From: Acetobacterium tundrae
Lineage (GTDB): Bacteria > Bacillota > Clostridia > Eubacteriales > Eubacteriaceae
Reading direction: 5' to 3'
Length of the DNA: 24,000 nucleotides
NCBI RefSeq assembly: GCF_008086615.1
Contig: NZ_RXYB01000012.1
Coordinates: forward strand, 30,075 to 54,074
The position numbers and the translations under genes are program-made. The notes beneath the pieces were generated by a model, which ran no database searches, was not told the DNA's origin, and saw only the letters and a list, made by a program, of their open reading frames with translations. Below are positions 1 to 19,848 of this stretch, in pieces; position 1 is the first letter of the stretch; each line of letters starts with the position of its first letter.

Positions 1-579
1 ACCATTGTCAATCGAAAAAAAATTCTTGAATCCGCCCAACAATTGTTTAATACCAAAGGTTATTATAATACCAATACCAAAGAAATTGCCAAACTGGCCG
101 GTGTTTCAACCGGCAGTTTCTATAATTATTTTCCGGATAAACTGAGTATTTTTCAGGAGATCATGATCATTTTCCTTAGTCGAAGTTATTTGGATTTATG
201 TGAACTGGCAAGAAAACTTGATCAACAACCACAAATTGCCAAAGCAACGATCTTAAGCTTTGTCCAAAATGGAATGGATCATGCATATGAAGATGTGGTT
301 ATGTTTCAGGATTTTGACAGTATTGTCATGGCGAATCCGAAATTAAACGATATTCAAGGCGAATTTTACGACAAAATCTTGAACGAAATTTATACCTTCT
401 GCAAAGAAAGCCCATATGTAAAACAGCGGACCGAAAATCCCCTGGTGATGTCTCGAATGGCTTATTTTCTGGTTCAGGGTACTTCCGCATTTGTCGCAAA
501 ATTACCGGAAGATATTGATAAAAGTGAATATCAAGAACAATTGGTAGAAATTGTCTATTGGTATTTATTTGGCAGCTGA
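1..579 (+). CDS. TetR/AcrR-family transcriptional regulator (5' end outside window)
   Basis: Frame 1 is open from base 1 (TIVNRKKILESAQQLFNTKGYYNTNTKEIAKLAGVSTGSFYNYF), which is a typical TetR N-terminal HTH. The TTG at 43 in the ORF track is internal. Stop TGA at 577-579. Confidence 0.85.
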   Translation, partial: TIVNRKKILESAQQLFNTKGYYNTNTKEIAKLAGVSTGSFYNYFPDKLSIFQEIMIIFLSRSYLDLCELARKLDQQPQIAKATILSFVQNGMDHAYEDVVMFQDFDSIVMANPKLNDIQGEFYDKILNEIYTFCKESPYVKQRTENPLVMSRMAYFLVQGTSAFVAKLPEDIDKSEYQEQLVEIVYWYLFGS

Positions 580-703
580 AATTGATTGAAGTTGGCTGAG
601 TGCAGAAGTAAGCCATTTATTTTATAATGATCTTTATTATCAGTGATCAGAAAAACGGTGAATTACCTACTACGCTGTTTGAATCCCTACTTCAAATCCG
701 GTC

Positions 704-1213
704 ATGGCAGTCAATAGAGAGCTTAAAGTGATCTATATGAATGAGTCGGAGAAAAAACTTCTGAAGAAATCTGCGGACAACATTATCGGCAGCGTTGAAT
801 TTATCATGGATATCACCGAATGCGTTTTATATGAGAATCGGCTCAAAGAACAGAGTCATACCATCCGGGAAATGTCAACTCCGACGATTAAACTATGGGA
901 AGGCGTCCTGGTTCTGCCGGTTGTCGGTGTAGTCGACTCCCTGCGGGCCCAGCATATGATGGAAAGCATGCTGAATGAAATTGCGGAAACCTATTCAAAA
1001 GTGATTATTTTGGATATCCACGGTGTTGCGGCGGTGGATATGGCCGTTGCAAACCGTCTGATTAAAATTGCCAAAGCAACCAAACTCATGGGCTGTGAAT
1101 GCATGGTCAGGAATATCCCCGGCAGTCGATCAGACTATCATACAGTTGGGCACATCGAGCGTACTAAGAATTATGTGCGAATTCTTGCCGAAAAGTTGAG
1201 TACCTATGAATAA
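704..1213 (+). pseudogene. Chimeric pseudogene: rsbR-like PAS-STAS remnant fused to a fragment of the HD-GYP response-regulator gene
   Basis: The protein matches residues of the 6733-7530 product but lacks the first ~24 codons and has no RBS. It has a 180-bp in-frame PAS deletion (NIIG|SVEFIMD) and a 2-bp deletion near 1104 that shifts frame. It then reads HIERTKNYVRILAEKLSTYE, identical to 11814-11873. The Thr of VDTAVA is replaced (VDMAVA). Confidence 0.8.
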
Positions 1214-1265
1214 TAGTCTGTAAAAAACGATGCCACGCGATCTTTATCAAATTTCATGAATAAAG

Positions 1266-1294
1266 ATGCAAAAACAATCGCATTGTAGTATAAT
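1266..1294 (+). promoter_or_regulatory. Candidate sigma-A promoter (copy 1) for the leader and phosphatase gene
   Basis: Perfect -10 TATAAT at 1289-1294. Weak -35 ATGCAA at 1266-1271 with a 17-nt spacer. The same arrangement is conserved at 12588-12616. Confidence 0.5.
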
Positions 1295-1299
1295 ACAAA

Positions 1300-1445
1300 T
1301 CAAGCGAAACGGAAAGTCATCAGGGATGCTTCGTTAGTCATCTTATCAGTCAGTAGTTGAGGACAGGCAGTTAAAAACATCCCCGTGTCATTTGTATAAC
1401 CAACTGAAAAGTGTGTGAACTATTAAAAATTCAAGATAAAAATTT
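1300..1445 (+). promoter_or_regulatory. Conserved ~150-nt 5' leader, unclassified (copy 1)
   Basis: About 88% identical to 12617-12757. Predicted stem 1303-1311/1327-1335 (AGCGAAACG/TGCTTCGTT) is invariant between copies, while the enclosed loop varies. AGTCA motifs recur. Confidence 0.4.
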
Positions 1446-1457
1446 GGAGGGATGGTA

Positions 1458-2390
1458 ATGGAAAAAGATAGGAAAGTTATTCTTTTGGGGTTATGTGTAA
1501 CTGCTTTAGTTTGTATCTTTGCAATGGCAGGATGTGGCGTTAACACCAGCGAAAAAGGAGCCGGCAATGCACAGATAAAAAATACAGTAACCCAGGAAAG
1601 TCAGACAATCGGATTAACAGGGGTTGATAACGCTCGTCAATTGGGGGAATATGTAACAACTGACGGAAAAAAAATTAAAGATGGCATTTTACTAAGAACA
1701 GGAAAATTATCTGGTGCTACCAACGAAGATATTACCACATTAACTGGAAAATATCACCTTACGGAAATCATTGATTTACGGTCAACAGCAGAAATTGAAG
1801 CAGCTCTAGATCCGGTTATTGATGGGGTCACTGAGGAGAATGTTCGAATTGCTGATGAGACCAGTCCTGCATATTTAACTGCGATGTCAGTTGTGCGTAC
1901 TGATGATCCAGTAGGTGATGCGATCACAGAGGTTGAAAATGGAACAATAAGCGATACGTTGTATTCATACATTGTTACGAGTACTTATGGGCAACAGGCA
2001 TATCACGAATTCTTTGAAAAATTACTTGCACATGAAAATGGAGCAATTCTGTTTCACTGTTCTGCAGGCAAGGATCGTACTGGTCTAGCAGCCGTTTTAC
2101 TACTCTCGGCTCTTGGTGTAGACCGAGAGACAATTATGGAAGATTTTGCATTAACAAATGATTTTTATGCTGATAATATTGATTATATGGTCAGTGAAAC
2201 AAAAAAAAGAACAGATGACGCTAAAATAATTGAAGGCGTTTATGCCGTGGTTGGTGCAAATTCAAGCTATATGGAAAAAATGTTTGATGCGATCAATGAA
2301 AAATATGGATCGATGGATAACTTCTTAAAAGAAGCAATTGGACTAACTGATAAAGATGTGACAAAGTTGAGAGATATGTATCTTGAATAA
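1458..2390 (+). CDS. Lipoprotein tyrosine-protein phosphatase (Y_phosphatase3-like, CX5R)
   Basis: GGAGGG at 1446-1451 lies 6 nt before ATG 1458; ATG 1452 is too close to it. Signal peptide with lipobox FAMAG|C. Active-site loop HCSAGKDRTG. Confidence 0.8.
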   Translation: MEKDRKVILLGLCVTALVCIFAMAGCGVNTSEKGAGNAQIKNTVTQESQTIGLTGVDNARQLGEYVTTDGKKIKDGILLRTGKLSGATNEDITTLTGKYHLTEIIDLRSTAEIEAALDPVIDGVTEENVRIADETSPAYLTAMSVVRTDDPVGDAITEVENGTISDTLYSYIVTSTYGQQAYHEFFEKLLAHENGAILFHCSAGKDRTGLAAVLLLSALGVDRETIMEDFALTNDFYADNIDYMVSETKKRTDDAKIIEGVYAVVGANSSYMEKMFDAINEKYGSMDNFLKEAIGLTDKDVTKLRDMYLE

Positions 2391-2466
2391 TGGTTGCTTA
2401 TTATGGGACTGAAAGACCAGGCTCAATTCATATGATGCAGAGACTTTCAGAAAAAAGGAGATAATT

Positions 2467-2637
2467 TTGAAAATTGTTTGTTTTGGCGACAGTTTGACTT
2501 TTGGATATAATGTAGCCCACAAAGATAAATGGCATGTCCTCGCAGAAAAGAAGACCGGGATCCGAATGCAAAACAGCGAAATTAACGGGGATACCACTGA
2601 TGGGATGCGATTTTATTTGCGGGTTTCTGTTACCTGA
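2467..2637 (+). pseudogene. 5' stub of SGNH/GDSL hydrolase gene (paralogue of 12866-13438)
   Basis: AAAGGAG followed by TTG 2467, then KIVCFGDSLTFGYN. Homology to 12866-13007 ends at 2608, and the frame terminates at TGA 2635-2637 after 56 codons. Confidence 0.8.
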
Positions 2638-2669
2638 CCTATCTGTATTTTGATCAAAATAAATTAGAG

Positions 2670-3401
2670 TTGCCAATAGGGTTTGAGCTCCGTCACTCAT
2701 TCAGAGGTATAGCAGGGGTGACTGAAGAAATTGAAGAAAAGTTCGGATTCATCGCGGAGTCTCAGGATCGGATTGTACTGGCTTTTCGTGGATCGGATTC
2801 GACTCTGAATCTGGATTCTGATCTCGATCTTTTTCAGACTCCATTACCCTATGTGGAAAATGTCGGCAACAGCCATAGAGGAATTACCCGGGTTTATCAG
2901 TCGATGTGCGAAGAGTTGATCGAGATTGTACGGAAACTGCCTGAAGACAAAAGACTCTATCTAACCAGCCATAGTCTGGGAGGAGATCTTGCCATAATGA
3001 CAGCACTGGACTTTGCAGTCAATATACCAAATAAAGATCTCGTTGTTTACACTTATGCTGCTGGTAGACCTGGTGCTCCGGATTTTGTGAATGATTACAA
3101 CACTTATGTTAAAAACAGCTATCGGATTTTTAATGTGCATGATTTTATTCCAACCCTGCCTGCATTTGAATATCCGCCGCCCTTTACGGAAAAGGGGTTA
3201 TTTTATGAACACGTTGATTTTTCGGTGCCGATTAGTTTTCAGATGAATAACCTGTTCTTAAATCACCGGATAAACTGTTATTTTCAGAAGTTGGGTGAGT
3301 TGGATATCGATTATATGAACACTTTGCGTAAAAAGAACCCGAATTTTTGTCCTGAGGCCATTAATTTGCAGGAATTGGCAATATCAATGGCAAATAATTA
3401 A
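2670..3401 (+). CDS. Class-3 lipase family protein, probably 5'-truncated
   Basis: AFRGSDS, nucleophile elbow SHSLGG and NVHDFIPTLP are Lipase_3 hallmarks. The frame is open back to 2601 (WDAILFAGFCYLTYLYFDQNKLELPIGFEL), but the only start is TTG 2670 with no RBS. The 5' end abuts the duplication junction at 2608. Confidence 0.6.
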   Translation: MPIGFELRHSFRGIAGVTEEIEEKFGFIAESQDRIVLAFRGSDSTLNLDSDLDLFQTPLPYVENVGNSHRGITRVYQSMCEELIEIVRKLPEDKRLYLTSHSLGGDLAIMTALDFAVNIPNKDLVVYTYAAGRPGAPDFVNDYNTYVKNSYRIFNVHDFIPTLPAFEYPPPFTEKGLFYEHVDFSVPISFQMNNLFLNHRINCYFQKLGELDIDYMNTLRKKNPNFCPEAINLQELAISMANN

Positions 3402-3450
3402 GGATTGAGGACATGAATCTAACATTCAAAATTATTTGGTGGATATCGCA

Positions 3451-3549
3451 ATGGAGAGAAAATATAAGTTTGCCTGGGATTTGTTGGGTGACATAGAAGA
3501 AGGATGTCCCCATATGGGTAACACAACTCGGGTTGAATATTTGAAATAA
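3451..3549 (+). pseudogene. 32-codon stub resembling the N-terminus of a V4R (4-vinyl reductase) domain protein
   Basis: MERKYKFAWDLLGDIEEGCPHMGNTTRVEYLK* resembles the F-x-W-x-L-L-G-D-I...G-R-P-x-L-G...V-x-V-Y-R start of V4R proteins, recalled from memory and not searched. It stops prematurely. Confidence 0.3.
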
Positions 3550-3568
3550 TTTAAGTAATTGCAAAAAA

Positions 3569-3592
3569 GCGTACTATTGACAGTACGTTTTT
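3569..3592. terminator. Rho-independent terminator
   Basis: Stem CGTACT (3570-3575) / AGTACG (3582-3587), 6-nt loop, then TTTTT. An A-run precedes the hairpin. Confidence 0.55.
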
Positions 3593-3605
3593 ATTATGAT
3601 AAATT
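3577..3605 (+). promoter_or_regulatory. Sigma-A promoter for the MarR-led gene cluster
   Basis: -35 TTGACA at 3577-3582, 17-nt spacer containing an extended-10 TG at 3597-3598, -10 TAAATT at 3600-3605. It overlaps the preceding hairpin. Confidence 0.55.
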
Positions 3606-3666
3606 AGTTAATGATATTTAATTAAAAATTGTTAACTAATTTAGAAACGGTAATTGGAGGTTAGTT

Positions 3667-4104
3667 ATGGAAGCGAAATTTGCTGCGCTTGTAAATTTAT
3701 TATGGGAAGAATGTATACGAAATCTTAATGCTACACTAACTGAGGAGGAAGCAGAAAAATTTTCTAATAATGACTATTACCATTTGCTAGTAATCCATTC
3801 ATTACAGAGACCGAATTTCTCCCAAATAGCAGAAAAATTATCTTTGACTAAACCAGCGGTTTCTGCAATTATAAGAAAAATGATTAATATGAAACTAGTT
3901 GAAAAAATGCAATCGGCAGAGGATAAAAGAATTTTTTATGTTGAACTCACCGCAAAGGGAAGCTCCATTTTGCAGGGAGATAAAGCTGTTTATAAATGGG
4001 TTACAGATACCATTAAAAGTATTGCTTCCAATGAAAAAGAAGTTATAATTGTTGAGCAGATTATTTCTTCTTTGGTAGAAAAATTGGAGAAAAAGAACAT
4101 ATGA
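3667..4104 (+). CDS. MarR-family transcriptional regulator
   Basis: GGAGG RBS. Winged-HTH segment NFSQIAEKLSLTKPAVSAIIRKMINMKLVEKMQSAEDKRIFYVELTAKG. Confidence 0.85.
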   Translation: MEAKFAALVNLLWEECIRNLNATLTEEEAEKFSNNDYYHLLVIHSLQRPNFSQIAEKLSLTKPAVSAIIRKMINMKLVEKMQSAEDKRIFYVELTAKGSSILQGDKAVYKWVTDTIKSIASNEKEVIIVEQIISSLVEKLEKKNI

Positions 4105-4135
4105 AATATATGAAAACGAAAGAAGGAAAAGTAAG

Positions 4136-4882
4136 ATGATTTTTTATTTTAGCGGAACCGGAAATTCTAAACATGTTGCTAATAAAATTGCGAAAGGAAC
4201 AGGTGAAAGGCTAGTCGATATTTCTGAAAGCATCATTGAGAAAAATGAGACATATGAAGTCGAAAAGAATGAAAAAATTGGATTCGTTTTTCCTGTTTAT
4301 TGGTATTGTATGCCAAAAATAGTTGAGAAGTTTATAGTACAGCTAAAATTATCAGGATATCGGAAGCAATATGTTTATGCAATAACAACATATGGGATAG
4401 CTGCGGGAAATGTGATGGACAGATTAATCCAAACCTTAAGAAATAAGCAAGTGCAATTAAATGGAATATTCGGCGTACAGATGATTGACAATTATGTGGT
4501 GGGATATAATATTATTAATATAGATAAACAAAGCACTATTTTGAAAAAGGCTGAGGTGGAAATAGATAAAATTATGTTGATGATCGAGTATCGAGAAAAT
4601 ATTGAATATATAAAAAAGGGAAGTATCCGGTTTGTTACTCCAATTACTGGATATGGCTATAGAAAAGCCAATCATATTAAGAAGTTTTTTGTTACACAAA
4701 AATGTAATGGTTGTAAACAGTGTGAAAGTAGTTGTCCATGCAATACAATACATATGATGGATGGAAAACCTATGTGGTTAGGGGAATGTACATTCTGTCT
4801 AAAATGTATTAATGGATGCAAACAATCAGCAATTCAGTATGGTAAATTCACTGAGAAGAGAGATAGATATCAGTATAAATGA
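4136..4882 (+). CDS. Flavodoxin-like / 2x[4Fe-4S] ferredoxin fusion (EFR1-type)
   Basis: N-terminal MIFYFSGTGNSKHVA is a flavodoxin-like phosphate-binding loop. C-terminal Cys clusters are CNGCKQCESSCP and CTFCLKCINGC. Confidence 0.75.
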   Translation: MIFYFSGTGNSKHVANKIAKGTGERLVDISESIIEKNETYEVEKNEKIGFVFPVYWYCMPKIVEKFIVQLKLSGYRKQYVYAITTYGIAAGNVMDRLIQTLRNKQVQLNGIFGVQMIDNYVVGYNIINIDKQSTILKKAEVEIDKIMLMIEYRENIEYIKKGSIRFVTPITGYGYRKANHIKKFFVTQKCNGCKQCESSCPCNTIHMMDGKPMWLGECTFCLKCINGCKQSAIQYGKFTEKRDRYQYK

Positions 4883-4894
4883 AAAAGGAATATT

Positions 4895-5728
4895 ATGTTT
4901 AAAAACGAATTGGTCAGCAAAGCCATCGATTATATTGTAGAAAATTTAAATGAGGAAATCTCCATTGAAGATGTAGCAGCTTATTGTCATCTTTCCAAGT
5001 ATTATTTTTGCAGAGTTTTCAAGTCAGAAACAGGTGAAAGCATTTATGGGCTTATCAAACGTTTGAAAATGGAACAAAGCGCCATCGAAATGAAGCTGTT
5101 AAAAGATAAATCCATTACCGATATCGGCGTTACCTACGGATACAGTTCATCGAATTACAGTTCAGCATTTAAGAAGCACCATCATGTTTCACCTGCGGCA
5201 TTTCGAAAAAATGTGAATATGAACAGTGCCCCCCATCCTTTTATTCTGGAAAAGAAGGCGACGTTTCAATCATTTGATGAATATAACCAACAGATTCAAA
5301 TAAAGGATTTGGATAATTTTAAGGTCATCTATGAACGGTATCTGGGAAATTACCTTGATCTGGGAAAAAACTGGTCTGAATTCACCGAAAAATATCAGAA
5401 TTATTTCAGAGAAGAGACCCTTTTGATTGAACGGTTCTTTGATGATCCTTCCATCACAAATGTTGGGCAATGTTTATATGACATCTGTATGACGGTCGAC
5501 ACAACCTGTCCCCTTGAAAATGTTATGACGATTCAGGGCGGAAAATTTGCCGTTTACAGCTTTGATGGGTTGATACCGGATATTTTTGAAGCTTTTCAAG
5601 GCGTATTTAATATCTGGATGCCAAACAGTGGTTATGAAATGGACGAAAGATATGGACTTGATATTTATCGCAAAATTGACAGAGATAAGCAGCATGTTGT
5701 TATGGATTTATGCATACCAGTTAAATAG
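4895..5728 (+). CDS. AraC-family regulator with GyrI-like effector-binding domain
   Basis: Two HTH units (IEDVAAYCHLSKYYFCRVFK, ITDIGVTYGYSSSNYSSAFKKHHHVSPAAFRK). The C-terminal half is GyrI-like (GGKFAVYSFDG, PNSGYEMDERYGLDIY). Confidence 0.85.
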   Translation: MFKNELVSKAIDYIVENLNEEISIEDVAAYCHLSKYYFCRVFKSETGESIYGLIKRLKMEQSAIEMKLLKDKSITDIGVTYGYSSSNYSSAFKKHHHVSPAAFRKNVNMNSAPHPFILEKKATFQSFDEYNQQIQIKDLDNFKVIYERYLGNYLDLGKNWSEFTEKYQNYFREETLLIERFFDDPSITNVGQCLYDICMTVDTTCPLENVMTIQGGKFAVYSFDGLIPDIFEAFQGVFNIWMPNSGYEMDERYGLDIYRKIDRDKQHVVMDLCIPVK

Positions 5729-5902
5729 AGCAAGAATTCAGAAGTATAAAATCAGACTTTTTTATATAATCAGAACAGTCATCAAGACTGTGTTCGATTT
5801 AATAGAAGTCTGTTTTATGCTTTTTTGCAATTAAAAGGTGCATAAACGAATTTTTATTAACAACAGTCGATCACAATAAAGTGAAAAAATGGAGGATTAA
5901 AA

Positions 5903-6451
5903 ATGTTCGATATCAGAAAAATTCAGGAGCAGGTTATTTATAAGGCGGTTAAAGATGGGAGCAATGAAGAAACGGCAAGAGAAATCGTATATGGATCGGA
6001 TGAACAAGGGAAACCGGAAGATAATCCGACATGGGTAAAATCGACAATGAAGCGACTGGAAAACCAATTTGATCAATCAATCGTTCATCAGATTAGAAGG
6101 AACTGTCAGTGTGGGTACGGAATGGATGAGAAATTGGCACTTGTTAAAGAGCTGGTAGACATATCTTCGAGCATAGAAGAATTTGGCAATCAGGACAAAG
6201 CAAAAGCTGCGGGACTGTTTTGTAATAATGGGGAACTCTATCTCCAGTTTCATTTTTGCCCATGCCCGATGCTTGAAGGGGTTGATCGACTGGAGACAGA
6301 TACCTGGTGTCAATGCACGACTGGTTACAGTAAAGTTCTTTTCGAAAAAGCGTTTATGTGTCAAGTTGAGGTGGAGTTGTTAAAAAGCATAAAAATGGGT
6401 GATGATAAATGTCTAATGAAAATCATCCCAGAAAATAATATTTGGAAATAA
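5903..6451 (+). CDS. Cys-rich hypothetical protein (possible metal or cofactor binding)
   Basis: GGAGG RBS. Motifs CQCGYG, FCPCP, WCQCTTGY and DDKC. Family not recognised with confidence. Confidence 0.6.
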   Translation: MFDIRKIQEQVIYKAVKDGSNEETAREIVYGSDEQGKPEDNPTWVKSTMKRLENQFDQSIVHQIRRNCQCGYGMDEKLALVKELVDISSSIEEFGNQDKAKAAGLFCNNGELYLQFHFCPCPMLEGVDRLETDTWCQCTTGYSKVLFEKAFMCQVEVELLKSIKMGDDKCLMKIIPENNIWK

Positions 6452-6610
6452 ACGTGGCATAGGAATGTTTAGATCTGGAAACATTGATTTGGTTATATTC
6501 TTTATTATCAGTGATCAAAAAACGATGAAATAACACTTCGCCGTTTGAATCCCGGCTCCAATGCCATGTTTTCTCTTGTTTTCACTACCTTGCTCAAAAT
6601 AAGGTTTAAT

Positions 6611-6639
6611 TTGATTGCTTTTGGGTATTAAGCAATTAT
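6611..6639 (+). promoter_or_regulatory. Weak candidate promoter for the rsbRST-HK-RR operon
   Basis: TTGATT at 6611-6616, 17-nt spacer, AATTAT at 6634-6639. Several alternatives exist in this AT-rich gap. Confidence 0.25.
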
Positions 6640-6732
6640 ATAGTTCATACTTGATGAGAGCGGATAACTGGAAGAATAAATATTTTAGAAACAATAACAA
6701 TTTTCAATAGCTGATAATAAAAGGAGGATATT

Positions 6733-7530
6733 ATGAAAAAGATGTATCAGGAAGCAGATGATCAACTGAAATCTCAGATTCTTGACCAAATTCCAACTCC
6801 AGTCATGGCAGTTAACAGAGAGCTTAAAGTGATCTATATGAATGAAGCGGGAAAAAAACTCCTAAAGAAATCTGCGGACAATATTATTGGTTTAGCCTGT
6901 AAGGATTTAATTGCGACTGAGCAGTGTGGTACTGAACAGTGTGGTATGCTGAAAGCTATCAGTGACGGCAAATCTTTTAGCGGTCGTACTGAAATCAATA
7001 CTGGAGAGAACAGGATCCAGGTTGAATATTCGGTTGTACCTTTGCAGGATGACAGCGGTGAAATTATCGGTGGCGTTGAATTTATCATGGATATCACCGA
7101 ACGTGTTTTATATGAGAATCGGCTTAAAGAACAGAGCCATACCATCCGCGAAATGTCAACACCGACGATTAAACTCTGGGAAGGCGTTCTGGTTCTGCCA
7201 GTTGTTGGTGTGGTCGACTCCCTGCGAGCCCAGCATATGATGGAAAGCATGTTGAATAAAATTGCGGAAACTTATTCAAAAGTGATTATTCTGGATATCC
7301 ACGGTGTTGCGGCGGTGGATACGGCCGTTGCCAATCATCTGATTAAAATCACTAAGGCAACCAAACTCATGGGCTGCGAATGCATCTTGTCAGGAATATC
7401 TCCGGCAGTCGCTCAGACGATCATACAGTTGGGAATTGATATGGCAGCTATCAATACCCAGGCAACACTCAGTGACGCTCTTTCAGAAGCGTTCATTATC
7501 CTGAGTCTGGAAGTTATTACAAAAGAATAA
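6733..7530 (+). CDS. rsbR: RsbR-like stressosome sensor (N-terminal PAS, C-terminal STAS)
   Basis: AAAGGAGG RBS. PAS region PTPVMAVNRELKVIYMNEAGKKLL...GGVEFIMDITER. STAS region STPTIKLWEGVLVLPVVGVVDSLRAQ...DIHGVAAVDTAVANHLIK. By my by-eye alignment, Ser/Thr sit at the positions of B. subtilis RsbRA T171/T205. Confidence 0.85.
   Translation: MKKMYQEADDQLKSQILDQIPTPVMAVNRELKVIYMNEAGKKLLKKSADNIIGLACKDLIATEQCGTEQCGMLKAISDGKSFSGRTEINTGENRIQVEYSVVPLQDDSGEIIGGVEFIMDITERVLYENRLKEQSHTIREMSTPTIKLWEGVLVLPVVGVVDSLRAQHMMESMLNKIAETYSKVIILDIHGVAAVDTAVANHLIKITKATKLMGCECILSGISPAVAQTIIQLGIDMAAINTQATLSDALSEAFIILSLEVITKE
6916..6945 (+). repeat. 15-bp tandem duplication inside the PAS domain (TEQCG x2)
   Basis: ACTGAGCAGTGTGGT / ACTGAACAGTGTGGT, with one synonymous difference. 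Confidence 0.9.
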
Positions 7531-7545
7531 TAAAGAGATAGGATT

Positions 7546-7923
7546 GTGAAGCACATGACTATAGAAGGTTATAACATATCCATAACGGTAATCGATAACA
7601 ATTTCATTGTGGTACTTCCGGAAGAAATGAACAATGTGACTATCGGAAAAATAGAAAGTATGGTGACGGAGAAAGCCTACCAAAACGAAATTAATGGTGC
7701 CATCCTTAATTTTTCGATGGTTTCTGTCATGGACACTTATACCTATCGTGCTTTTGAACGTATAACTGATGTTTTTTCACTGATGGGGATTCATACTGTA
7801 TGGGTCGGTTTGCGCCCAGGGGTTGTTTCAGGACTGATGGATTTAGATATTGCCGTCAATTTGAAAATAAAAATGGCGTTGAATCTTGAACTTGGTTTAG
7901 TATTGATTGATCGTGACAGATAA
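7546..7923 (+). CDS. rsbS: RsbS-like single-domain STAS protein
   Basis: 125 aa. ...NGAILNFSMVSVMDTYTYRAFERITDVFSLMGIHTVWVGLRPGVV... aligns by eye with B. subtilis RsbS, with Thr at the Ser59 position. The start is uncertain (GTG 7546 or ATG 7555). Confidence 0.8.
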   Translation: MKHMTIEGYNISITVIDNNFIVVLPEEMNNVTIGKIESMVTEKAYQNEINGAILNFSMVSVMDTYTYRAFERITDVFSLMGIHTVWVGLRPGVVSGLMDLDIAVNLKIKMALNLELGLVLIDRDR

Positions 7924-8396
7924 TGAACCGAAGTAATGATCCGTTTGAAATAGAAGCCGATGCAAAGAATAAGATCATCGAAACAAAAAAATTAGACCTG
8001 ATTTTGAGTCACGATAATGAGAACGTTGTGTTTTCAGTTCGTCAAATTGCAAACAAAGCAGGATTCAGTTTGATTGATGAAGTCCTGATCGCTGTGGCAG
8101 CATCTGAGTTAGCCACGAATATTCTGCGTTATGCTGGAAAGGGATCGATCAAAATAAATATTATCTGCGATGTCGTCAGCGGAATTACTGGCATTGAGCT
8201 TCTGGCAAATGATGCTGGACCGGGAATTAAAGACATTGAACTGGCTCTGCAGGAAAATTACAGCACACAGGTCAACAGTTTGGGGCAGGGTCTCCCCAGT
8301 GTAATTAAAATTATGGATGAATTCCATATCAAATCTGAATCGGGAAAAGGAACTCGTATTCTCACCCGAAAATGGCTAAAAAACGAAGAAAATTAA
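7923..8396 (+). CDS. rsbT: RsbT-like GHKL serine/threonine kinase (switch protein)
   Basis: The start overlaps the rsbS stop (TAATG). N-box ELATNILRYA, G1 NDAGPGI, G2 GQGLPSV, 157 aa. Confidence 0.85.
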   Translation: MNRSNDPFEIEADAKNKIIETKKLDLILSHDNENVVFSVRQIANKAGFSLIDEVLIAVAASELATNILRYAGKGSIKINIICDVVSGITGIELLANDAGPGIKDIELALQENYSTQVNSLGQGLPSVIKIMDEFHIKSESGKGTRILTRKWLKNEEN

Positions 8397-8532
8397 GTGC
8401 ATAATTGAAATGGAAACATCGCTGAGGATGCCGATATAATTGCAGAAGGTATTCTTTATTAACCGAAAAAAATAATATGCTCCCTCTATTCAGATGGAAT
8501 AGATAATATATGGACAAAATGGAGGTTGTGTA

Positions 8533-11289
8533 ATGATTGAACTGGGCCAAATTAAAGTTGACTCCAATAATTCCATGATTGAGGCTAGAAAAAAAGCACG
8601 CTCAATTGCTTTGAAACTGGGCTGTTCAGAAGTGACTGCCACTCGGATTGAAGCGGCAGTGTCAGAAACAATCAGACAGCTTCTTGACAGTATGATGACG
8701 ATTGATTTTGCCGTTTCAGTTAAAGAATCTGTTGGGGAAATTCCAATCAGAAATGGTATCAATATCATTTTTGACAATTTTGATTATCCGCTCAATCCGG
8801 ATTTTAAAGCGCAGCATTTTGAAAATTTTGTTTCTTCTGAAACGGTAAATGGAAAATATACATTCACAATCTTTTTACCTTTTATCACGATCGATCCGGA
8901 TTTTAGCTATTCTCTGGTCGAAGAATTGAAGAGCGAAATTGAATCGCCTTCCAAAGAGGAACTGCTAAAAGAAATTGAGTGCAAAAACATCGAGCTCGCA
9001 AATAGCAGGCAGTTTATGGAATCGGTGCTGGAAAATCTACAGGCTGCCGTTTATGCAAAAGATTTAAATGGCAACTACACCTATATCAACCGGCACTGGG
9101 AAGAAGCAACAGGTCACAAACGGGATGAATGTATTGGCCGAACCGCAAAAGAAGTTTTTTCGTCAGACGGAGAGGCGTATGACCAAAACGATCAGGATGT
9201 CATTAAGTTACAGGAAAACCAGGTAACCGAGGAATATTCCATAAAGGACAAGCAGAAACGGACCTACCAATCAACCAAGGTGCCAATGAAACAAAACGGA
9301 GATATTGTTGGGATATGCAGTATTTCCACGGATATCACGCAAAGAAAAAAAATGGAGGAGGAATTATTTGAAGCCAAAATTCTTGCTGAAGAAGCGGCGG
9401 AATCTAAATCTTATTTTCTGGCCAATATGAGTCATGAGATACGCACACCGATGAATGCCATATTGGGAATGAGCTATCTCATCCAGAAAACCGATCTGTC
9501 GATAAAACAGCAGGACTATGTTAATAAAATACAGCAGTCAGGACAGCACCTGCTGGGTATTATCAATGATATTTTGGACTTTTCAAAAATTGAAGCTGGC
9601 AAACTAAATATCGAATCCATTGATTTTAAACTCTATGAAGTGCTGGATAACCTCTCCAATTGCAACAGCGAGAAATGCCTTGCCAAAAATCTGGAGCTAG
9701 TGTTTGATGTTGATCCGGATGTACCTAATGAATTATGCGGTGATCCGCTGAGAATCGGACAAATCCTGATTAACTATGTAAACAATGCAATTAAATTTAC
9801 TGATCGGGGAAGAATTACGGTTAGAATTAGAAAAGATAAAGAATTTTCAGATGGATTTCAGCTTAAATTTGAAGTTCAGGATACCGGAATCGGTTTGAAA
9901 GAAGAGCAGCAGTCAAAACTCTTCCAATCATTTCAGCAGGCTGATATATCCACAACCCGGAAATATGGCGGAACAGGTCTTGGCCTTGCCATTTCCAGGA
10001 AATTGGCAACTTTAATGGGTGGTGAAGTTGGTGTGAAATCCGAATTTGGAAAAGGCAGCATTTTCTGGTTTACCACCCATTTTAATGTCACCGAAAAAGT
10101 TTTGAAATCCAATGTTCCCTATCCTAGCTCTGACAATCCCTGGGTTATGTATGAAACCGAACTTGGAATTCCTAAAAAAAGCTGTAAGCTTGAACCGGAA
10201 AAAAGAAGTCTGGATTCTGTCACGGGTCAAAAGAATCTGCAGGACCTTTGCAATGCGAAAATTCTGCTGGTGGAAGATAATGAACTCAATCAGGAAGTTG
10301 CCGTTGAAATCCTCAGGGATGTGGGATTACAGGTTGATATAGCCGCCAATGGCGAAATTGCAGTTGCAATGGTTGATCAAAAAAAATATGATCTGGTGCT
10401 GATGGATATGCAGATGCCAGTTTTAGATGGGCTTGAAGCCACAAGACAAATCCGTTCCAACAATCGGTTCAGGAATCTGCCAATTGTAGCGATGACTGCC
10501 AATGCAATGGCCGGTGATCGGGAACAATGTCTTGCCGCCGGAATGAATGATCATTTACCGAAACCGATTGTACCTGGAGATCTTTTCAAAATGTTGGTTC
10601 GATGGATACCGTCATTCAATCATACTCCGTATTTATTTGAACGCCGTATCGATATTGTCCATGAGGATCCATTGGATCAGGAGGACATTAGAATAAGCGG
10701 GCTGGATATCGAACTGGGTCTTGGTCACGTCCTGGGAAAGAAAAAATCCTACAAGAATCTCCTACGAAAATTTGCTTCAGGTCAAAAAAACGTAATAGAT
10801 GATATTCGAAAATCAATCAATAATGGAGATTTTAACACGGCGGAACGGCTTGTACATACACTGAAGGGTGTTACTGCCAATATTGGAGCGATGGAAATAA
10901 ATAAAAATGCCGAAATCCTAGAAACAGCTATCAGAGAAGAACCTGCCAGTGAAGCATTAAAAACGTTAATTCAAAATATTGATCTGCCATTAAAAAATTT
11001 GATTACTGCTCTAAAAAAACAATTGCCTGAGAAAGAGAACGCCATTAAGGTTAACTTTTCCGTAACCTCAAACTTGGCCCTGATTTCTTTTCTGGAAGAA
11101 CTCATGCAGTATATTCGGGTCCGAAAGCCAAAAAGATGTTCAGAAGTAATTGAATCCCACTATGAAATTTGCTGGCCGGATGAACTCAAAGACGAAGCAT
11201 CTGATCTCTATCAATTTATTTCAAAATATCAATTTAAGGAAGCTGCTGAAAAGGTGGAGTCCTTATTAATCAGATTAAGTGAGGTTTGA
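8533..11289 (+). CDS. Hybrid sensor histidine kinase: novel N-domain, coiled coil, PAS, HisKA, HATPase_c, REC, HPt
   Basis: GGAGG lies 7 nt upstream. H-box [14 protein letters not shown]-box [11 protein letters not shown]1 DTGIGL, G2 [13 protein letters not shown] segment ILLVEDN...[13 protein letters not shown]...KP. HPt motif [12 protein letters not shown]. Confidence 0.9.
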
Positions 11290-11291
11290 TT

Positions 11292-12407
11292 ATGAAAGTA
11301 TTATCGGAATGTACTGTTTTAATTGTGGATGATACGGAAATCAATATCGATATTCTGGTCGAAGCTCTGGGTGATGATTATGAACTGTCTGTGGCCATGG
11401 ATGGGGAATCCACTCTCGAAATTGTAAAAATGGAACGGCCGGATTTAATTTTGCTGGATATCATGATGCCGGGAATGAGCGGATATGAGGTGTGTAAAAA
11501 ACTTAAAACAAATGCTGCAACATCCGATATACCGATCATTTTCTTGACTGCCATGACAGATATCGAAAGCAAAAGAAGAGGATTTGAAGCAGGTGCAGTC
11601 GATTACATCACCAAACCGTTTGAAATACTCGAGGTGAAGGCGCGTGTACAGACCCATCTGTTCATCACGATGGCAAGGAATGAACTGGCCATGCAGAACG
11701 AGATCCTTGAAAAACGGGTTGCTGAACGAACCAGGGAATTATGTCTGACTCAGGAAATTACCATAGAAGCCCTAGCTTCGCTTGCTGAGTATCGGGATCC
11801 TGATACAGGCGGGCACATCGAGCGTACTAAGAATTATGTGCGAATTCTTGCCGAAAAGTTGAGTACCTATGAAAAATATAAAACGATTCTGAATGACGAA
11901 GTCATTCAGATTTTTTACAAATCGGCACCGCTTCATGATATCGGTAAAATTGGAATACGAGATGATATCCTCCTTAAGCCGGGAAAGCTGACACATGATG
12001 AATTTGAAGAGATGAAACGGCATACTGTTATCGGTTACGAGGCACTCCGCATTGCAGCGTTAAAACTAGGCGAAAATTCATTTCTTAAACATGCCATGGA
12101 ATTTGCAAAATACCATCAGGAAAAATGGGATGGTTCTGGTTATCCCGATGGTCTCTCAGGGTATGACATTCCCCTTGCCGGTAGAATCATGGCGATTGCG
12201 GATGTCTATGATGCGCTCATCAGTAAAAGAGTCTACAAACCGCCTTTTACACATAAAAAAGCAGTCGAAATTATCAAGGAAGGCAGAGACAGTCATTTTG
12301 AGCCATTAATGGTAGATGCATTTCAAGAAGTACAAGAATTGTTTCGGCAAATCGCGATTAAATATGCAGATTATCCTGAGGAATTAATAGCCTTGAATGA
12401 AAAATAG
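11292..12407 (+). CDS. Response regulator with HD-GYP domain (RpfG-type c-di-GMP phosphodiesterase)
   Basis: GAGG lies 7 nt before ATG 11292; TTG 11286 overlaps the HK stop. REC segment VLIVDD...LILLDIMMPGMSG...KP. HD-GYP motifs HDIGK and HQEKWDGSGYP. Confidence 0.9.
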   Translation: MKVLSECTVLIVDDTEINIDILVEALGDDYELSVAMDGESTLEIVKMERPDLILLDIMMPGMSGYEVCKKLKTNAATSDIPIIFLTAMTDIESKRRGFEAGAVDYITKPFEILEVKARVQTHLFITMARNELAMQNEILEKRVAERTRELCLTQEITIEALASLAEYRDPDTGGHIERTKNYVRILAEKLSTYEKYKTILNDEVIQIFYKSAPLHDIGKIGIRDDILLKPGKLTHDEFEEMKRHTVIGYEALRIAALKLGENSFLKHAMEFAKYHQEKWDGSGYPDGLSGYDIPLAGRIMAIADVYDALISKRVYKPPFTHKKAVEIIKEGRDSHFEPLMVDAFQEVQELFRQIAIKYADYPEELIALNEK

Positions 12408-12502
12408 TCTGTGAAAAACGATACTACGCGACCTTTAGCAAATTTTATAAGTATTTCATCCGTGCTGTACCCCGGAATTTCTCTATAAACACTAAACAGG
12501 GA

Positions 12503-12541
12503 TGGCAACATATAATATTATATGTTGCCAATTTTTGTGTT
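12503..12541 (+). terminator. Rho-independent terminator of the signalling operon
   Basis: Perfect 28-bp palindrome TGGCAACATATAAT|ATTATATGTTGCCA at 12503-12530, followed by ATTTTTGTGTTT. Absent from copy 1. Confidence 0.8.
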
Positions 12542-12587
12542 TGTAATAGAAAATATATTTATTTGAGATCAAAATATATGCATAAAG

Positions 12588-12616
12588 ATGTAAAAATGAT
12601 CGCAATGTAGTATAAT
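12588..12616 (+). promoter_or_regulatory. Candidate sigma-A promoter (copy 2)
   Basis: -10 TATAAT at 12611-12616, -35 ATGTAA at 12588-12593, 17-nt spacer. Conserved with 1266-1294. Confidence 0.5.
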
Positions 12617-12857
12617 AAAAATCAAGCGAAACGGGTAGTCATCAAGGATGCTTCGTTGGTCATATTATCAGTCAGTAGTTGAGGACGGGTAGTCAAAAGT
12701 CTCTCCGTTTCATTTTTATAACCAAATGAAGCGTGAGCGAACTATTAAAAATCAAGAAGAGAGCTGTATCTTGAATAATGGTTGCTTATTCAGGGACTGA
12801 CAGACCAGACCAGACCAGGCTCAATTTATATGATGCAGAGACTTTCAGAAAAAAAGG
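12617..12857 (+). promoter_or_regulatory. Conserved 5' leader, unclassified (copy 2), now directly upstream of the SGNH hydrolase gene
   Basis: Predicted stem 12625-12633/12649-12657. Exact 11-nt direct repeat ACGGGTAGTCA at 12631-12641 and 12685-12695. AGTCA/GGTCA motifs at 12637, 12658, 12670 and 12691. Confidence 0.4.
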
Positions 12858-12865
12858 AGATAATT

Positions 12866-13438
12866 TTGAAAATTGTTTGTTTTGGCGACAGTTTGACTTT
12901 TGGATATAATGTAGCCCACAAAGAAAAATGGCATGTGATTGTAGAAAAGAAGACCGGGATCCAAATGCAAAACAGCGGAATTAACGGGGATACCACTGAT
13001 GGGATGCTTGCCCGTATCCAACAACAGGTGTTTGCGGCAAAACCCGATGGGGTTATCCTGATGGGCGGTTATAACGATATTTTCTTCAACCATTCCTGGC
13101 AGAGTGCCGCCCAAAACATGAAAATCATGGTTGAGCGGTGCCGAGGACAAAACCTGCTGGTAGTTGTGGCGATTCCGCCTCCGATTCTGCTGCCGGTGGC
13201 ATTCAAAGACGGTGGCGAAGCCATCGATTTTAAAAAATCTGCGGTGATGGTCGAAGCGTATTGCCAGTGGCTAAGGGATTTTACCGCAACTGCGCAATTA
13301 CCTATCTTGGATTTCCGAAGCGCCATCGACTGGACTGATCAAGATCTGTATCTCGACGGGATTCATCAAAGCCCGGCCGGCCATCAACGGATGGCTGGCC
13401 GACTGATTGAGTTTATGGGAAAACAGTCTTGGTTATGA
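12866..13438 (+). CDS. SGNH/GDSL-family hydrolase
   Basis: AAAGGAG lies 7 nt before TTG 12866; the ORF-track start at 12782 is unlikely. Blocks I GDSLTFG, II SGINGDTT, III GGYND and V DGIHQ. Confidence 0.8.
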   Translation: MKIVCFGDSLTFGYNVAHKEKWHVIVEKKTGIQMQNSGINGDTTDGMLARIQQQVFAAKPDGVILMGGYNDIFFNHSWQSAAQNMKIMVERCRGQNLLVVVAIPPPILLPVAFKDGGEAIDFKKSAVMVEAYCQWLRDFTATAQLPILDFRSAIDWTDQDLYLDGIHQSPAGHQRMAGRLIEFMGKQSWL

Positions 13439-13748
13439 ATATTTTACTAAATCATTTAATTCTTTAGCTTTTTTTGCTGCATCCATCTTTGCGTAAACAT
13501 AAAAAGCAATCGTGTGTAATGTGATTGATAGAATCACCATGCCTGGAATCCATGGTGCAATTAAATAAAACATTTCTGGAGAAAATAGCCAAACGGCTGT
13601 TAAGCCTCCCACAATATTCAAAATTGAAGAAATTAGAATATTGGTGATTGGTTTTTAATGTAAGGTAGTTCCACAAACCGCTGTAAATCACACCAAATAA
13701 AAATGCGAAAATAGCGGAAATTCCAATTAAGTTCCAACGATAACTCAA
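13433..13748 (-). pseudogene. Small 3-TM membrane protein split by a 1-nt frameshift in an A5 run
   Basis: The two overlapping minus-strand ORFs join if one A is removed from the run at 13652-13656. This gives ...GVIYSGLWNYLTLK|PITNILISSILNIVGGLTAVWLF... (~105 aa). Confidence 0.45.
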
Positions 13749-13773
13749 GGCAAGGGTTTGTCCGGAGGTGAAT

Positions 13774-14235
13774 ATGTCAACAAAAGTAAAAATTAAGATT
13801 CAGGATGATACGTTATTAAGAGAAATAATTGATACTGTATATGAAGAGTCCGATCAAATTATTTTAGCACGCTGGTCATTGGAGATGGCAAAACATATTT
13901 TAGAGCTGGTGAATATATCTTATGAAAATAACGATATTATTTTAGGTGGTTTTGATACAAATGTACGGTGGCAGAATGGGAAAGCCAGAATGCATGATGT
14001 GCGTCAGGCGGGTTTTAGAATTCACCAACTGGCAAGAAACAGTATGAATGAAATTGAAAAAACTGCATTGAGAGTTGTAGGACAGGCTGTCGGAAGCGGT
14101 CATATGCGAGAGCATGCAATGGTAGCAAGTGATTATTCTGTAAAAGTAATAAACCTTATCAAATCAGATTCTATGGAAGCTGTTTCAAAAGAAAGACAGT
14201 GGCAATTGAATAAACTGATGGAATGTAAAGGATGA
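13774..14235 (+). CDS. Hypothetical protein, possibly Imm5-like putative immunity protein family
   Basis: GGAGG lies 5 nt before ATG 13774. The helical pattern ARWSLEMAKHILELV...VRWQNGKARMHDVRQAGFRIHQLAR...GQAVGSGHMREHAMVASDYSVKVI resembles that family from memory. Confidence 0.6.
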   Translation: MSTKVKIKIQDDTLLREIIDTVYEESDQIILARWSLEMAKHILELVNISYENNDIILGGFDTNVRWQNGKARMHDVRQAGFRIHQLARNSMNEIEKTALRVVGQAVGSGHMREHAMVASDYSVKVINLIKSDSMEAVSKERQWQLNKLMECKG

Positions 14236-14367
14236 TCTCAACGATTCCAGCATGAGTAAACTCTTTCAATGGATAATGATCAGTGGGACTGTAAAAGATA
14301 AATAACAGAAATTGTTTTTACTGATTTGTGAGGAAGATTAAAATTTTATAGAAAAAAGAAAGGTCAA

Positions 14368-14457
14368 ATGATGAAAAAAGTATATCTTTATTTATTTGAT
14401 ACCATGGCGGATTGGGAATCTGATTACCGCGATCGGAGTAGCTCCGATGGAATTTAA
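14368..14457 (+). pseudogene. 29-codon stub resembling the N-terminus of a DJ-1/PfpI (class I glutamine amidotransferase-like) protein
   Basis: MMKKVYLYLFDTMADWESDY... is followed by a premature stop. Recognised by motif only. Confidence 0.3.
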
Positions 14458-14636
14458 CGTACACATGCTAACGGTTTTAGTTGTGTTTTCGTCGCAAACT
14501 CGGTAATCTAGAAATCTGTAGTCTGTAGAAAGGGAAAACCATCAGATACTGCCCGGCCACAAACAGATATTTGAAAACAATCTACAATATGGAGACTTAA
14601 GCAAAAAAAAGATTATAAAAGTGAGGAGAAGTGATA

Positions 14637-15263
14637 ATGAAAGAAAATGAATTAAAACTTTATACACAGCTCATGAAAACGAGGTTTATGGAAGATTCTG
14701 GGGTGATATTTCAAATCAACGGTTTGGAACGTGCCGGATTGCTTGTTGATTTGCAGTTTGAGGGACAGATTCAAGCATTTGATCGACAAAATGCAGTAAA
14801 GGTGCTAAATGGCGGCAAAGGATTATTGATTGGTTATTCAACCGAAGAATTACCTGAAGAAAAGCTGTTTAAAATATTTCAGCAATCGTCTCAGAAATTG
14901 TTGGAAACTGCCAAAGAAGATGAGCTTTTGTGGCTTCAAAATAAGGCCATTCAGGAAGCTGAAATTATTCCTCAAAATTGGCATCTGAAATATTACGATA
15001 GGGATGTCTATCATCTGTTGACCATCGCAATTGACAAGTCTCTGCAAGGGACCGGCGCTTTCAGAGAATTAATCATGCCTGTCATTCAGGCGTGTGATAA
15101 TAAAAAGCTACCTATTGTATTGGAAACCTTCAATCCTGAGAATGTTCCGCTCTACGAGCACTTCGGATTTAAACTAATGGAATCACATTCTTCTGAAGTG
15201 ATTAATTTAACCTGCTTTTGCATGATGCGATGGAGACAGGAAGATAACACAATAAGTGATTGA
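14637..15263 (+). CDS. GNAT-family N-acetyltransferase
   Basis: GAGGAG lies 8 nt before ATG 14637. Acetyl-CoA motif A LTIAIDKSLQGTGAFRELI, and C-terminal NVPLYEHFGFKL. Confidence 0.75.
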   Translation: MKENELKLYTQLMKTRFMEDSGVIFQINGLERAGLLVDLQFEGQIQAFDRQNAVKVLNGGKGLLIGYSTEELPEEKLFKIFQQSSQKLLETAKEDELLWLQNKAIQEAEIIPQNWHLKYYDRDVYHLLTIAIDKSLQGTGAFRELIMPVIQACDNKKLPIVLETFNPENVPLYEHFGFKLMESHSSEVINLTCFCMMRWRQEDNTISD

Positions 15264-15342
15264 ATCGATATTTACGGCAGAAAAGTCTGAGTAAAAGCAG
15301 AAAAACCGGATGTGTTTTATTCATCATAATAGGGGTAAAAAT

Positions 15343-15987: not shown

Positions 15988-16119
15988 GATCCTATGACTT
16001 AAAATAATACAATGATCATCAGCCCCTGACGGAAGAGAGTGTCTTTGCGAAAGCGATTGAATTTTAAACTGTCTGTGAATGAAATGCTAAGGCTTCAGTT
16101 AGAGAGAAAGAGAGATGAA

Positions 16120-16611: not shown

Positions 16612-16765
16612 TCTGACTGCTTTTAAATAATTTAACTTTATGGGGTAATAATATGAAAACAGTACAATATGCTTATCAACTTGATTTTTCCAGGCGCAAA
16701 TTGAAAACAACGATTGTACCAAAAAAATAGATAAGCAAATATGAACAAATATGAAAGGAAACATC

Positions 16766-17710: not shown

Positions 17711-17727
17711 ATGGAATTATTGTATCG

Positions 17728-17808
17728 GTGATCACATTGGGATATGGTACCCAGGAACCTAAAATGCCAACCAGAAAAGCAGCAGCGGATATTGTGAAGT
17801 TTTTCTAG
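17728..17808 (+). repeat. 81-bp direct repeat R1 (3' end of a small ORF), partner of 19909-19989
   Basis: 71/81 identical by hand count. Encodes VITLGYGTQEPKMPTRKAAADIVKFF*, against VIALEYGTPEPKMPKRKAAEDIVKFF* in R2. Confidence 0.8.
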
Positions 17809-17853
17809 GATATCAGTCAGCGAAAAAGTCGAGTGCATGACAGGAGGATGAGA

Positions 17854-19792: not shown

Positions 19793-19848
19793 TCACACCA
19801 TTTAATCTAATAAAAAGCGGTGCAAATCAACTGAAAGCGGTATAATGA

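Follow-up and report, generated by a model that had tools for sequence, protein, structure and literature searches.

A patch of gene remnants upstream of an intact stressosome-phosphorelay operon in Acetobacterium tundrae, and its probable origin as a decayed second copy

The intact operon and its fragmented counterpart

We analysed a stretch of 24,000 nucleotides of the Acetobacterium tundrae genome (assembly GCF_008086615.1, contig NZ_RXYB01000012.1, positions 30,075 to 54,074 of the forward strand), referred to below as the window, which carries an intact stressosome-phosphorelay operon and, upstream of it, a patch of broken gene pieces. The intact locus at window positions 6482-13007 was designated copy B and the fragmented one, at 614-2608, copy A; both are read on the forward (+) strand, as are the individual parts of the two loci and the remnants that adjoin copy A. 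The genome carrying the window (G000) was compared with that of Acetobacterium paludosum (G023) and with a lineage, L, represented by two independent metagenome assemblies, L037 (JGI) and L041 (ENA, a k141 contig of 35 kb), 99.6% identical to one another. Copy A is very probably a decayed second copy of the copy-B locus, with reciprocal loss by deletion in the two, and it is the core of a longer graveyard of dead gene pieces at 580-3565.

The copy-B operon with its upstream region (6482-12448) was delineated from open reading frames (ORFs) and Pfam domains, and has the order rsbR, rsbS, rsbT, hybrid histidine kinase (HK) and response regulator (RR). It encodes a PAS-STAS RsbR (6733-7530), a STAS-domain RsbS, an RsbT-like kinase, a hybrid HK of 918 amino acids (aa) with REC and Hpt domains, and a REC-HD-GYP RR (11286-12407). 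A terminator hairpin with a 12-bp stem followed by a T run (12503-12530) was found in copy B only. The remainder of the copy (12568-13007) comprises a leader, the scar of a phosphatase-gene deletion at 12757/12758 and the 5' part of a gene for an SGNH/GDSL hydrolase; this gene is intact (12866-13438, 190 aa, with the TTG at 12866 as its start) and its product is 90.5% identical to that of G023 and 92.6% to that of lineage L. In other species of the genus the operon occurs as a single copy, in unrelated neighbourhoods. The other domains recognised in the window were Lipase_3, MarR and AraC, and Pfam agreed with the gene names given in a first-pass annotation made from the nucleotide sequence (rsbR, rsbS, rsbT, HK, RR, phosphatase, SGNH hydrolase, lipase, MarR and AraC).

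BLASTN of positions 1-3000 against the rest of the window, together with a repeat search, revealed seven same-strand blocks shared between copies A and B, strictly collinear, with 80-96% identity and E values down to 4e-149. The first-pass annotation had described 631-2608 as collinear with 6499-13007 and had proposed a comparison of the window with itself as a check; that comparison, in which the blocks proved collinear and significantly similar, bore the description out and moved the limits to 614-2608 and 6482-13007. Queried against the 3.56-Mb genome, positions 600-2700 gave one further match only, a lipase paralogue on contig C12.

Copy A begins with a non-coding stretch, 614-695, which matches the region upstream of rsbR (B 6482-6561, 80% over 82 nt, E 6e-14) and ends at the first deletion junction, J1. 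Two rsbR fragments follow: codons 21-53 with part of the PAS domain (A 693-789, B 6794-6890, 88%, E 1e-29), up to J2, and codons 111-234 with the end of PAS and most of STAS (A 782-1150, B 7063-7433, 91%, E 4e-149, one 2-nt gap). The latter, in an ORF that gave a Pfam STAS match, carries a 2-nt deletion near 1100-1104 which shifts the frame. Enclosed between J3 and J4 are RR codons 173-198 with the HD-GYP motif 'GHIERTKNYVRILAEKL' (A 1140-1215, B 11803-11878, 96%), and beyond J4 the last three RR codons with the stop and downstream spacer (A 1206-1257, B 12397-12448, 87%), after which the terminator is missing (J5). The sixth block (A 1246-1436, B 12568-12757, 85%) is a copy of the putative promoter/leader that precedes the SGNH gene in B; in an Rfam search of the whole window no family matched the leader common to both copies. 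The seventh (A 2370-2608, B 12758-13007, 90%, E 2e-96) ends in a stub of the SGNH/GDSL gene from its start to codon 47 (2467-2608, 96% to 12850-13007, translation LKIVCFGDS...), the ORF of which terminates at the TGA at 2635-2637.

Junction lengths were determined with copy A set in register with both copy-B flanks at each breakpoint. Relative to B, 235 nt including the 5' end of rsbR are gone at J1, at an exact microhomology of 5 nt (TCCAA); 180 nt, in frame, at J2 (5 nt exact, or 9 with one mismatch, ATTATYGGY); 4380 nt at J3 (6 nt exact, or 11 with two mismatches, ATACAGnnGGG); 528 nt at J4 (10 nt exact, ATGAAAAATA); and 131 nt at J5 (4 nt exact). These registers match, to within a few bases, those of the at least five missing segments that the first-pass annotation had listed, and the hairpin at 12503-12530 lies within the last of them, in line with the loss of the operon terminator proposed there. 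Its statement that each junction sits at a short microhomology also held, the exact matches of 4-10 nt being above random expectation: with 200,000 breakpoint pairs placed at random in this DNA, the mean was 0.73 nt and P(>=5) was 0.007. The patch has in addition small indels of 2 nt, 1 nt and 10 nt. A run of 60/60 identical nucleotides between the copies (A 1151-1210) was considered as proof of gene conversion and rejected, as 0.2-0.6 such runs are expected at 90-92% identity over approximately 1.1 kb.

The lesions of copy A are disabling. It has lost rsbR codons 1-20, 54-113 and 235-265, the whole of rsbS, rsbT and the HK gene, and RR codons 1-172 and 199-370, to which the 2-nt frameshift and the disappearance of the promoter and ribosome-binding site (RBS) region are to be added. 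With rsbS and rsbT missing, the PAS domain gutted and the STAS domain truncated, it does not qualify as a functional stressosome module.

Reciprocal loss and the adjoining remnants

Between its sixth and seventh blocks, copy A alone contains an intact gene of the Y_phosphatase3 (CX5R) family (1452-2390, 312 aa, PF13350, E 5e-64), with a lipoprotein-like signal. Copy B lacks 934 nt here, corresponding to A 1437-2369 with the phosphatase gene, and has directly after its leader the last approximately 20 nt of that gene and the stop, AGAGAGCTGTATCTTGAATAA, reading ...ELYLE-stop. Orthologues of the phosphatase in the genomes G011 and G002 align up to the same stop; the AGAGAGCTGTATCTTGAATAA bases therefore belong to the phosphatase gene, and B had a deletion rather than A an insertion. 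The deletion has identical boundaries in G023 and shows microhomology of no more than 2 nt. Each copy thus keeps traces of what it has lost, B the phosphatase 3' end and A fragments of rsbR, RR and SGNH, and since B lost the phosphatase and A parts of the operon, neither copy derives from the present form of the other. The first-pass annotation had arrived at the same two points, a loss of about 930 bp from the intact copy with a scar near 12757 and the independence of the two copies, and the measured deletions and their remnants support both.

Orthologues of the phosphatase in G011, G002 and several metagenome contigs stand in unrelated contexts, and the phosphatase DNA had no match in G023. 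In lineage L the gene (L037 10001-10938; L041 8993-9924) is interrupted near codon 72-76 by a frameshift that both assemblies share. Intact in the window, frameshifted in L and absent from A. paludosum, the phosphatase seems to be disappearing throughout the clade. Another species of the genus has a further phosphatase fossil beside a lipase, independent of this one: contig L024 (G041:C64) carries at 10714-10962, on the minus strand, a 47-codon fragment of the same family (80% DNA identity), 1.8 kb upstream of a full-length class-3 lipase gene and separated from it by a gene for a NADase_transloc/TPR protein. The spacer following the phosphatase position also varies in length: compared with A 2370-2466, B 12758-12866 is expanded by 10 nt (CAGACCAGAC, belonging to a short repeat of the GACCA type), an expansion that is missing in copy A and lineage L and present as a 5-nt version in the B copy of G023.

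The remnants do not end with copy A. The SGNH stub is fused out of frame, at 2603-2608 and with a 6-nt microhomology (GGATGC), to a class-3 lipase gene copy (2603-3401, Pfam Lipase_3) that lacks its first 19 codons, RBS and promoter. A full-length paralogue of this lipase lies on contig C12 (2108-2980, minus strand; 91% over 793 nt), the two differing with a synonymous divergence (dS) of 0.23 and a ratio of nonsynonymous to synonymous divergence (dN/dS) of 0.26; in G023 the lipase remnant is shortened further and starts at codon 176. Next comes a 119-nt stub of a V4R gene (3419-3537), consisting of 32 nt of upstream sequence and the first 29 codons, present in G023 too. The full V4R gene is located 8.1 kb upstream of the stub and 4.6 kb before the window start, with its homologous stretch at window positions -4701 to -4583 (106/119 identical, 89%). 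With the exception of the phosphatase gene, everything between the TetR gene (ending at 579) and the MarR promoter (3565) is debris, and the patch is longer than first noted, continuing to 3537.

Two side observations concern these remnants. The joint of lipase 3' and V4R 5' ends looks like one that tandem duplication of a unit running from V4R to the lipase would newly create, yet the full-length lipase is on another contig. The C12 lipase gene is, moreover, unusually close to its A. paludosum orthologue (dS 0.023) compared with neighbouring loci.

Three lineages compared

Acetobacterium paludosum, the closest of the species compared, is collinear with the window upstream (94.5%) and again from 3193 to 13764 (92.9%, 10.6 kb). 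Between TetR and its lipase remnant, nothing is left in G023 but 60 nt of filler without a match and an SGNH stub of 184 nt (codons 3-63). This stub reaches 49 nt further 3' than that of G000, and the G000 lipase remnant 590 nt further 5' than that of G023; with each genome keeping bases that the other has lost, the two states need a deletion each, starting from a fuller ancestral form in which copy A was already in place.

Lineage L has a different arrangement, in the order HK-ABC-FtsX, MarR-flavodoxin-AraC-DUF6144, MFS-TetR, fossil, frameshifted phosphatase, full-length SGNH gene and downstream flank. Its fossil has all five deletions and the 2-nt frameshift (98% identity over 1-2608), and neither the lipase stub nor the intact operon was present at the site. 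In a five-way alignment the L sequence was A-like up to approximately the equivalent of 2413 and B-like from approximately 2536, inside the SGNH 5' repeat. Judged from the alignment, this switch fits an A x B crossover within the 90-96% identical SGNH repeat, which would have removed approximately 10.4 kb including the intact operon. The first-pass annotation had suggested that the direct repeats could mediate excision or amplification of 2609-6498; recombination between them is what lineage L appears to record, with the difference that the event removes about 10.4 kb and the operon, and not that block only. An RsbR protein cluster at 90% identity had no member from either lineage-L assembly and the SGNH cluster had members from both, which is weak evidence that the lineage has no close intact copy of the operon elsewhere. 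The G000-type junction of DUF6144 with rsbR is present on L042, a contig of 2.3 kb that comes from a sister sample at ENA, so that both arrangements exist in nature.

In more distant species the operon neighbourhood differs, and only the AraC-DUF6144 and MFS-TetR pairs are linked there, 7-14 kb apart and in either order, so that these flanks do not polarise the rearrangements. As a side observation, the AraC/GyrI-like and DUF6144 pair of the window (4895-6451) has a second copy on contig C33 (268235-269748, 82-85% DNA identity) and, conserved throughout the genus, mostly lies within 7-14 kb of an MFS-TetR pair.

The divergence between the copies was measured by the Nei-Gojobori method on the in-frame part of rsbR (381 nt). 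Copy A differs from the B copy of its own genome with dS 0.42, nonsynonymous divergence (dN) 0.024 and dN/dS 0.06, and from the B copy of G023 with dS 0.22, dN 0.024 and dN/dS 0.11; the two B copies differ with dS 0.25 and dN 0. Approximately 7 nonsynonymous and 12 synonymous changes fall on the A branch, against a nonsynonymous share of about 78% under neutrality (binomial P = 1.5e-4). Of the seven, three occur in G000 only, lineage L keeping the B residue at those sites, and the divergence of A before the G000/L split has a dN/dS of 0.06-0.17. Since the differences between A and B are mostly synonymous, copy A would have been a working, selected gene for most of the divergence, and the deletions would have come late. 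We infer that both copies were under purifying selection for most of this time and that both predate the split of A. tundrae and A. paludosum.

Course of decay, alternatives and known systems

The course of events that we propose starts with two copies of a locus composed of rsbR-rsbS-rsbT-HK-RR, terminator, leader, tyrosine-phosphatase and SGNH genes, both of which would have been present before the A. tundrae/A. paludosum split. Their redundancy would then have been resolved by loss. Copy B would have dropped the phosphatase only, by the one 934-nt deletion common to both species, and copy A would have been gutted by RecA-independent, microhomology-mediated deletions of the replication-slippage or end-joining type. 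On the branch of G000 and lineage L, five deletions and the 2-nt frameshift would have left a chimeric ORF of 169 codons; in G023, one larger deletion would have left 184 nt of SGNH. The remaining direct repeats would still be substrates for homologous recombination, and crossing over between A and B within SGNH would have joined the fossil of lineage L to the full SGNH gene and its flank.

Several observations weigh against this scheme. A single segmental duplication leaves unexplained why pieces of Lip3 and V4R, two unlinked loci, are also in the patch and have diverged to a similar degree. The maximum-likelihood tree supports the scheme in placing copy A inside the G000/G023 clade (100%), but within it groups A weakly with the B copy of G023 (61%) instead of outside both B copies. 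The informative sites are mosaic, 13 consecutive rsbR sites joining A with the B copy of G023 and 16 of the 22 SGNH 5' sites joining it with that of G000. No intermediate with a subset of the deletions was found among 395 homologues from a 5.8-billion-protein collection, so that sequential decay is assumed. Finally, the MarR-DUF6144 block precedes MFS-TetR in lineage L, lying upstream of it, an order that a single A x B crossover cannot yield.

Regarding this last point, the MarR-DUF6144 block of lineage L ends with 23 nt that in G000 open the upstream region of copy B (6482-6504, homologous to 614-636), followed by 115 nt of filler and then MFS; neither this filler nor the 60-nt one in G023 had a homologue among the sequences compared. 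The layout suggests that lineage L arose from a genome with a DUF6144-B junction, in which a piece with MFS-TetR, fossil and phosphatase may have replaced the operon, with one non-homologous end and the other end in SGNH. It is possible, though less likely than not, that the dead copy overwrote the living one in lineage L by SGNH-anchored recombination, perhaps through exchange with a sister lineage, and that the patch may itself be an import from a sister species. If this is true, a population may have lost a whole signalling system by pseudogene-mediated replacement.

The strongest competitor to an in-genome duplication is that copy A is a xenologue, a contiguous piece from a sister lineage with the operon, leader, phosphatase, SGNH, Lip3 and V4R genes in the order of the donor, which homology-facilitated or illegitimate recombination would have placed next to TetR and deletions then whittled down. 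We regard this as possible, though doubtful. The dS values between A and B (0.22-0.42) are close to that between the B copies of the two species, their low dN/dS denotes a gene working while it diverged, and the weak grouping of A with the B copy of the other species would be accounted for; so would the adjacency of fragments with unlinked resident homologues (the B locus, Lip3 on C12 and V4R 8 kb upstream) and similar divergence (dS 0.23 for the lipase remnant, 89% identity for the V4R stub). Identity between lineages is also mosaic along the region, ranging from 92% to 98%, which indicates frequent recombination between them. However, a contiguous donor arrangement was not found in 26 other species of the genus or among the metagenome matches, the same data fit old paralogues that were both kept functional, and the remnant at the same site in G023 means that an import must predate the species split. 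In the same 26 species and the metagenome contigs, the undeleted RR-leader-phosphatase-SGNH arrangement was likewise not found.

Copies that arose by in-genome duplication are expected to coalesce with one another earlier than with the orthologues of the nearest species, and copy A is no closer to its own B (90.8% identity) than to that of G023 (93.9%), the two B copies being 95.4% identical. Owing to the mosaic sites, a plain duplicate-then-diverge clock fails unless gene conversion or imports are allowed for; the mosaic, together with a short polymorphic motif swapped between the A and B copies of the two species, suggests gene conversion or exchange between lineages. An in-genome duplication, which would then predate the species split, is nevertheless the origin that we slightly favour, and the old in-genome duplication is given about twice the weight of an addition from a sister lineage. 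Of the segmental duplication from a common ancestor that the first-pass annotation had proposed, the second copy and the reciprocal loss stand; a single in-genome event is no more than slightly favoured, import being a live alternative.

As to the manner of decay, the five deletions might have been produced at once by replication-based template switching, with serial forward microhomology jumps resembling fork stalling and template switching or microhomology-mediated break-induced replication (FoSTeS/MMBIR). All five junctions are forward and collinear with microhomologies of 4-10 nt, both G000 and lineage L have all five, and the 395 homologues include no intermediate form. The fossil is, however, present in two lineages only, so that missing intermediates weigh little, and the small indels of the patch are typical of gradual decay. 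Additional independent deletions at the locus, namely the large one in G023 and two different junctions between SGNH and Lip3, indicate that a stepwise process operates here, and they make gradual decay the simpler reading; the one-step origin is therefore considered unlikely.

The chimeric ORF (704-1213, 169 codons) comprises approximately 128 aa of RsbR, 14 aa read out of frame and 21 aa of the RR HD motif. It could be imagined to encode a functional protein with a STAS domain only, such as a decoy subunit modulating the copy-B stressosome: its frame is open in G000 and both lineage-L assemblies, it keeps 76/106 positions of the Pfam STAS profile, and all three coding deletions are multiples of three. 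This idea is very improbable. No Shine-Dalgarno sequence was found before either candidate ATG, nor any promoter evidence, as the first deletion (J1) had removed the rsbR 5' region; the STAS C-terminus has been exchanged for the 14 out-of-frame and 21 HD-motif residues; and the whole ORF is deleted in G023. Since the G000/L split the ORF has acquired three nonsynonymous and two synonymous changes, a ratio that looks neutral and speaks against the idea, although five changes are too few to test neutrality, and an exact protein look-up of the 169-aa sequence gave no match. Multiples of three are, in addition, to be expected, for 50-62% of the repeated 5-7-mers within rsbR and RR have 3n spacing, in agreement with PMC6054270, where deletion sizes in coding DNA are described as tending to multiples of three because microhomologies are codon-periodic genome-wide. 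We read the ORF as a pseudogene, which most likely never yields a useful protein.

The sizes 180, 4380 and 528 were also considered in their own right as a trace of selection acting on the fused ORF, and this was rejected: with codon-periodic microhomology their joint chance is approximately 0.1. The 4380-nt deletion joins two genes lying in different frames.

That the repeat structure is an assembly artefact of the genome, a draft of 66 contigs, is effectively refuted, as the copies are only 80-96% identical and interrupted, and independent assemblies reproduce the fossil junctions (L033, 1714 nt, 99.4% over 1166-2875; L037 and L041, 98% over 1-2608), the DUF6144-rsbR junction (L042) and the synteny with G023; an artefact is excluded.

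Some features of the flanks are recorded here as side observations. A family of 58-nt repeats, 64-72% identical and with the core GATAAATAACAGRAATT, occurs at 14287-14344, 19228-19285, 21283-21340 and, weakly, 526-583; its members are intergenic and precede several downstream genes, and their position suggests that they may be a shared operator or promoter element. The downstream flank (13439-24000), with genes for an Imm5-like immunity protein, a GNAT protein, a metallo-beta-lactamase-fold protein, a hexapeptide transferase, a PS decarboxylase and Usp, is highly variable among the three lineages, with many indels (versus L020 and L037); in lineage L, 34 codons are all that is left of the Imm5 gene, and there is a LytTR gene. 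The flank showed neither a transposase nor an integrase, and no mobile-element genes that might have caused the rearrangements were found in the window.

The patch is a case of ordinary bacterial gene decay, involving no new mechanism and no new kind of biology. Its value lies in an unusually complete comparative series, with three related lineages at different stages of losing a redundant multigene locus; it also marks the region as a recombination hotspot in psychrotolerant Acetobacterium and as a test bed for deletion mechanisms. For annotation it is a warning, as the calls for a 'STAS protein' of 158/169 aa, an SGNH stub of 56 aa and a lipase of 263 aa are all three debris.

Among known systems, copy B shares gene order and domain set with the Vibrio-type stressosome-phosphorelay operon (RsbR-S-T(-X), hybrid HK and HD-GYP RR). 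The operon pieces of copy A come from the first and last genes of that set; unlike the Vibrio-type operon, copy A is without rsbS, rsbT, the HK, most of the RR and parts of rsbR, and cannot form such a system. The pair resembles duplication-degeneration with reciprocal loss, in that each copy loses different members and only the two together hold the ancestral gene set. In contrast to a stable partition of function, the retained phosphatase carries a frameshift in lineage L and is missing from G023, which looks like continuing loss, and we found no evidence that it makes copy A indispensable.

RecA-dependent crossover between diverged direct repeats is a known route of deletion. With its one homologous join in the SGNH repeat and one non-homologous join, lineage L is similar to products of homology-facilitated illegitimate recombination and direct-repeat deletion; the difference is that here the event is deduced from a comparison of assemblies. 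The decay of bacterial pseudogenes under deletional bias was reportedly set out by Mira, Ochman and Moran in 2001.

Deletions between short direct repeats are among the pseudogene changes reported in PMC6054270 and PMC2916853. As far as these accounts go (Kuo & Ochman 2010, PMC2916853; Danneels et al. 2018, PMC6054270), the likeness to copy A is close: a redundant copy was removed piecemeal through microhomology-flanked deletions, with the same codon periodicity. The deletions of copy A differ from the indels treated in PMC6054270 in their size, 131-4380 nt against <=15 nt, in having struck a five-gene operon, and in that the sister copy lost a different gene.

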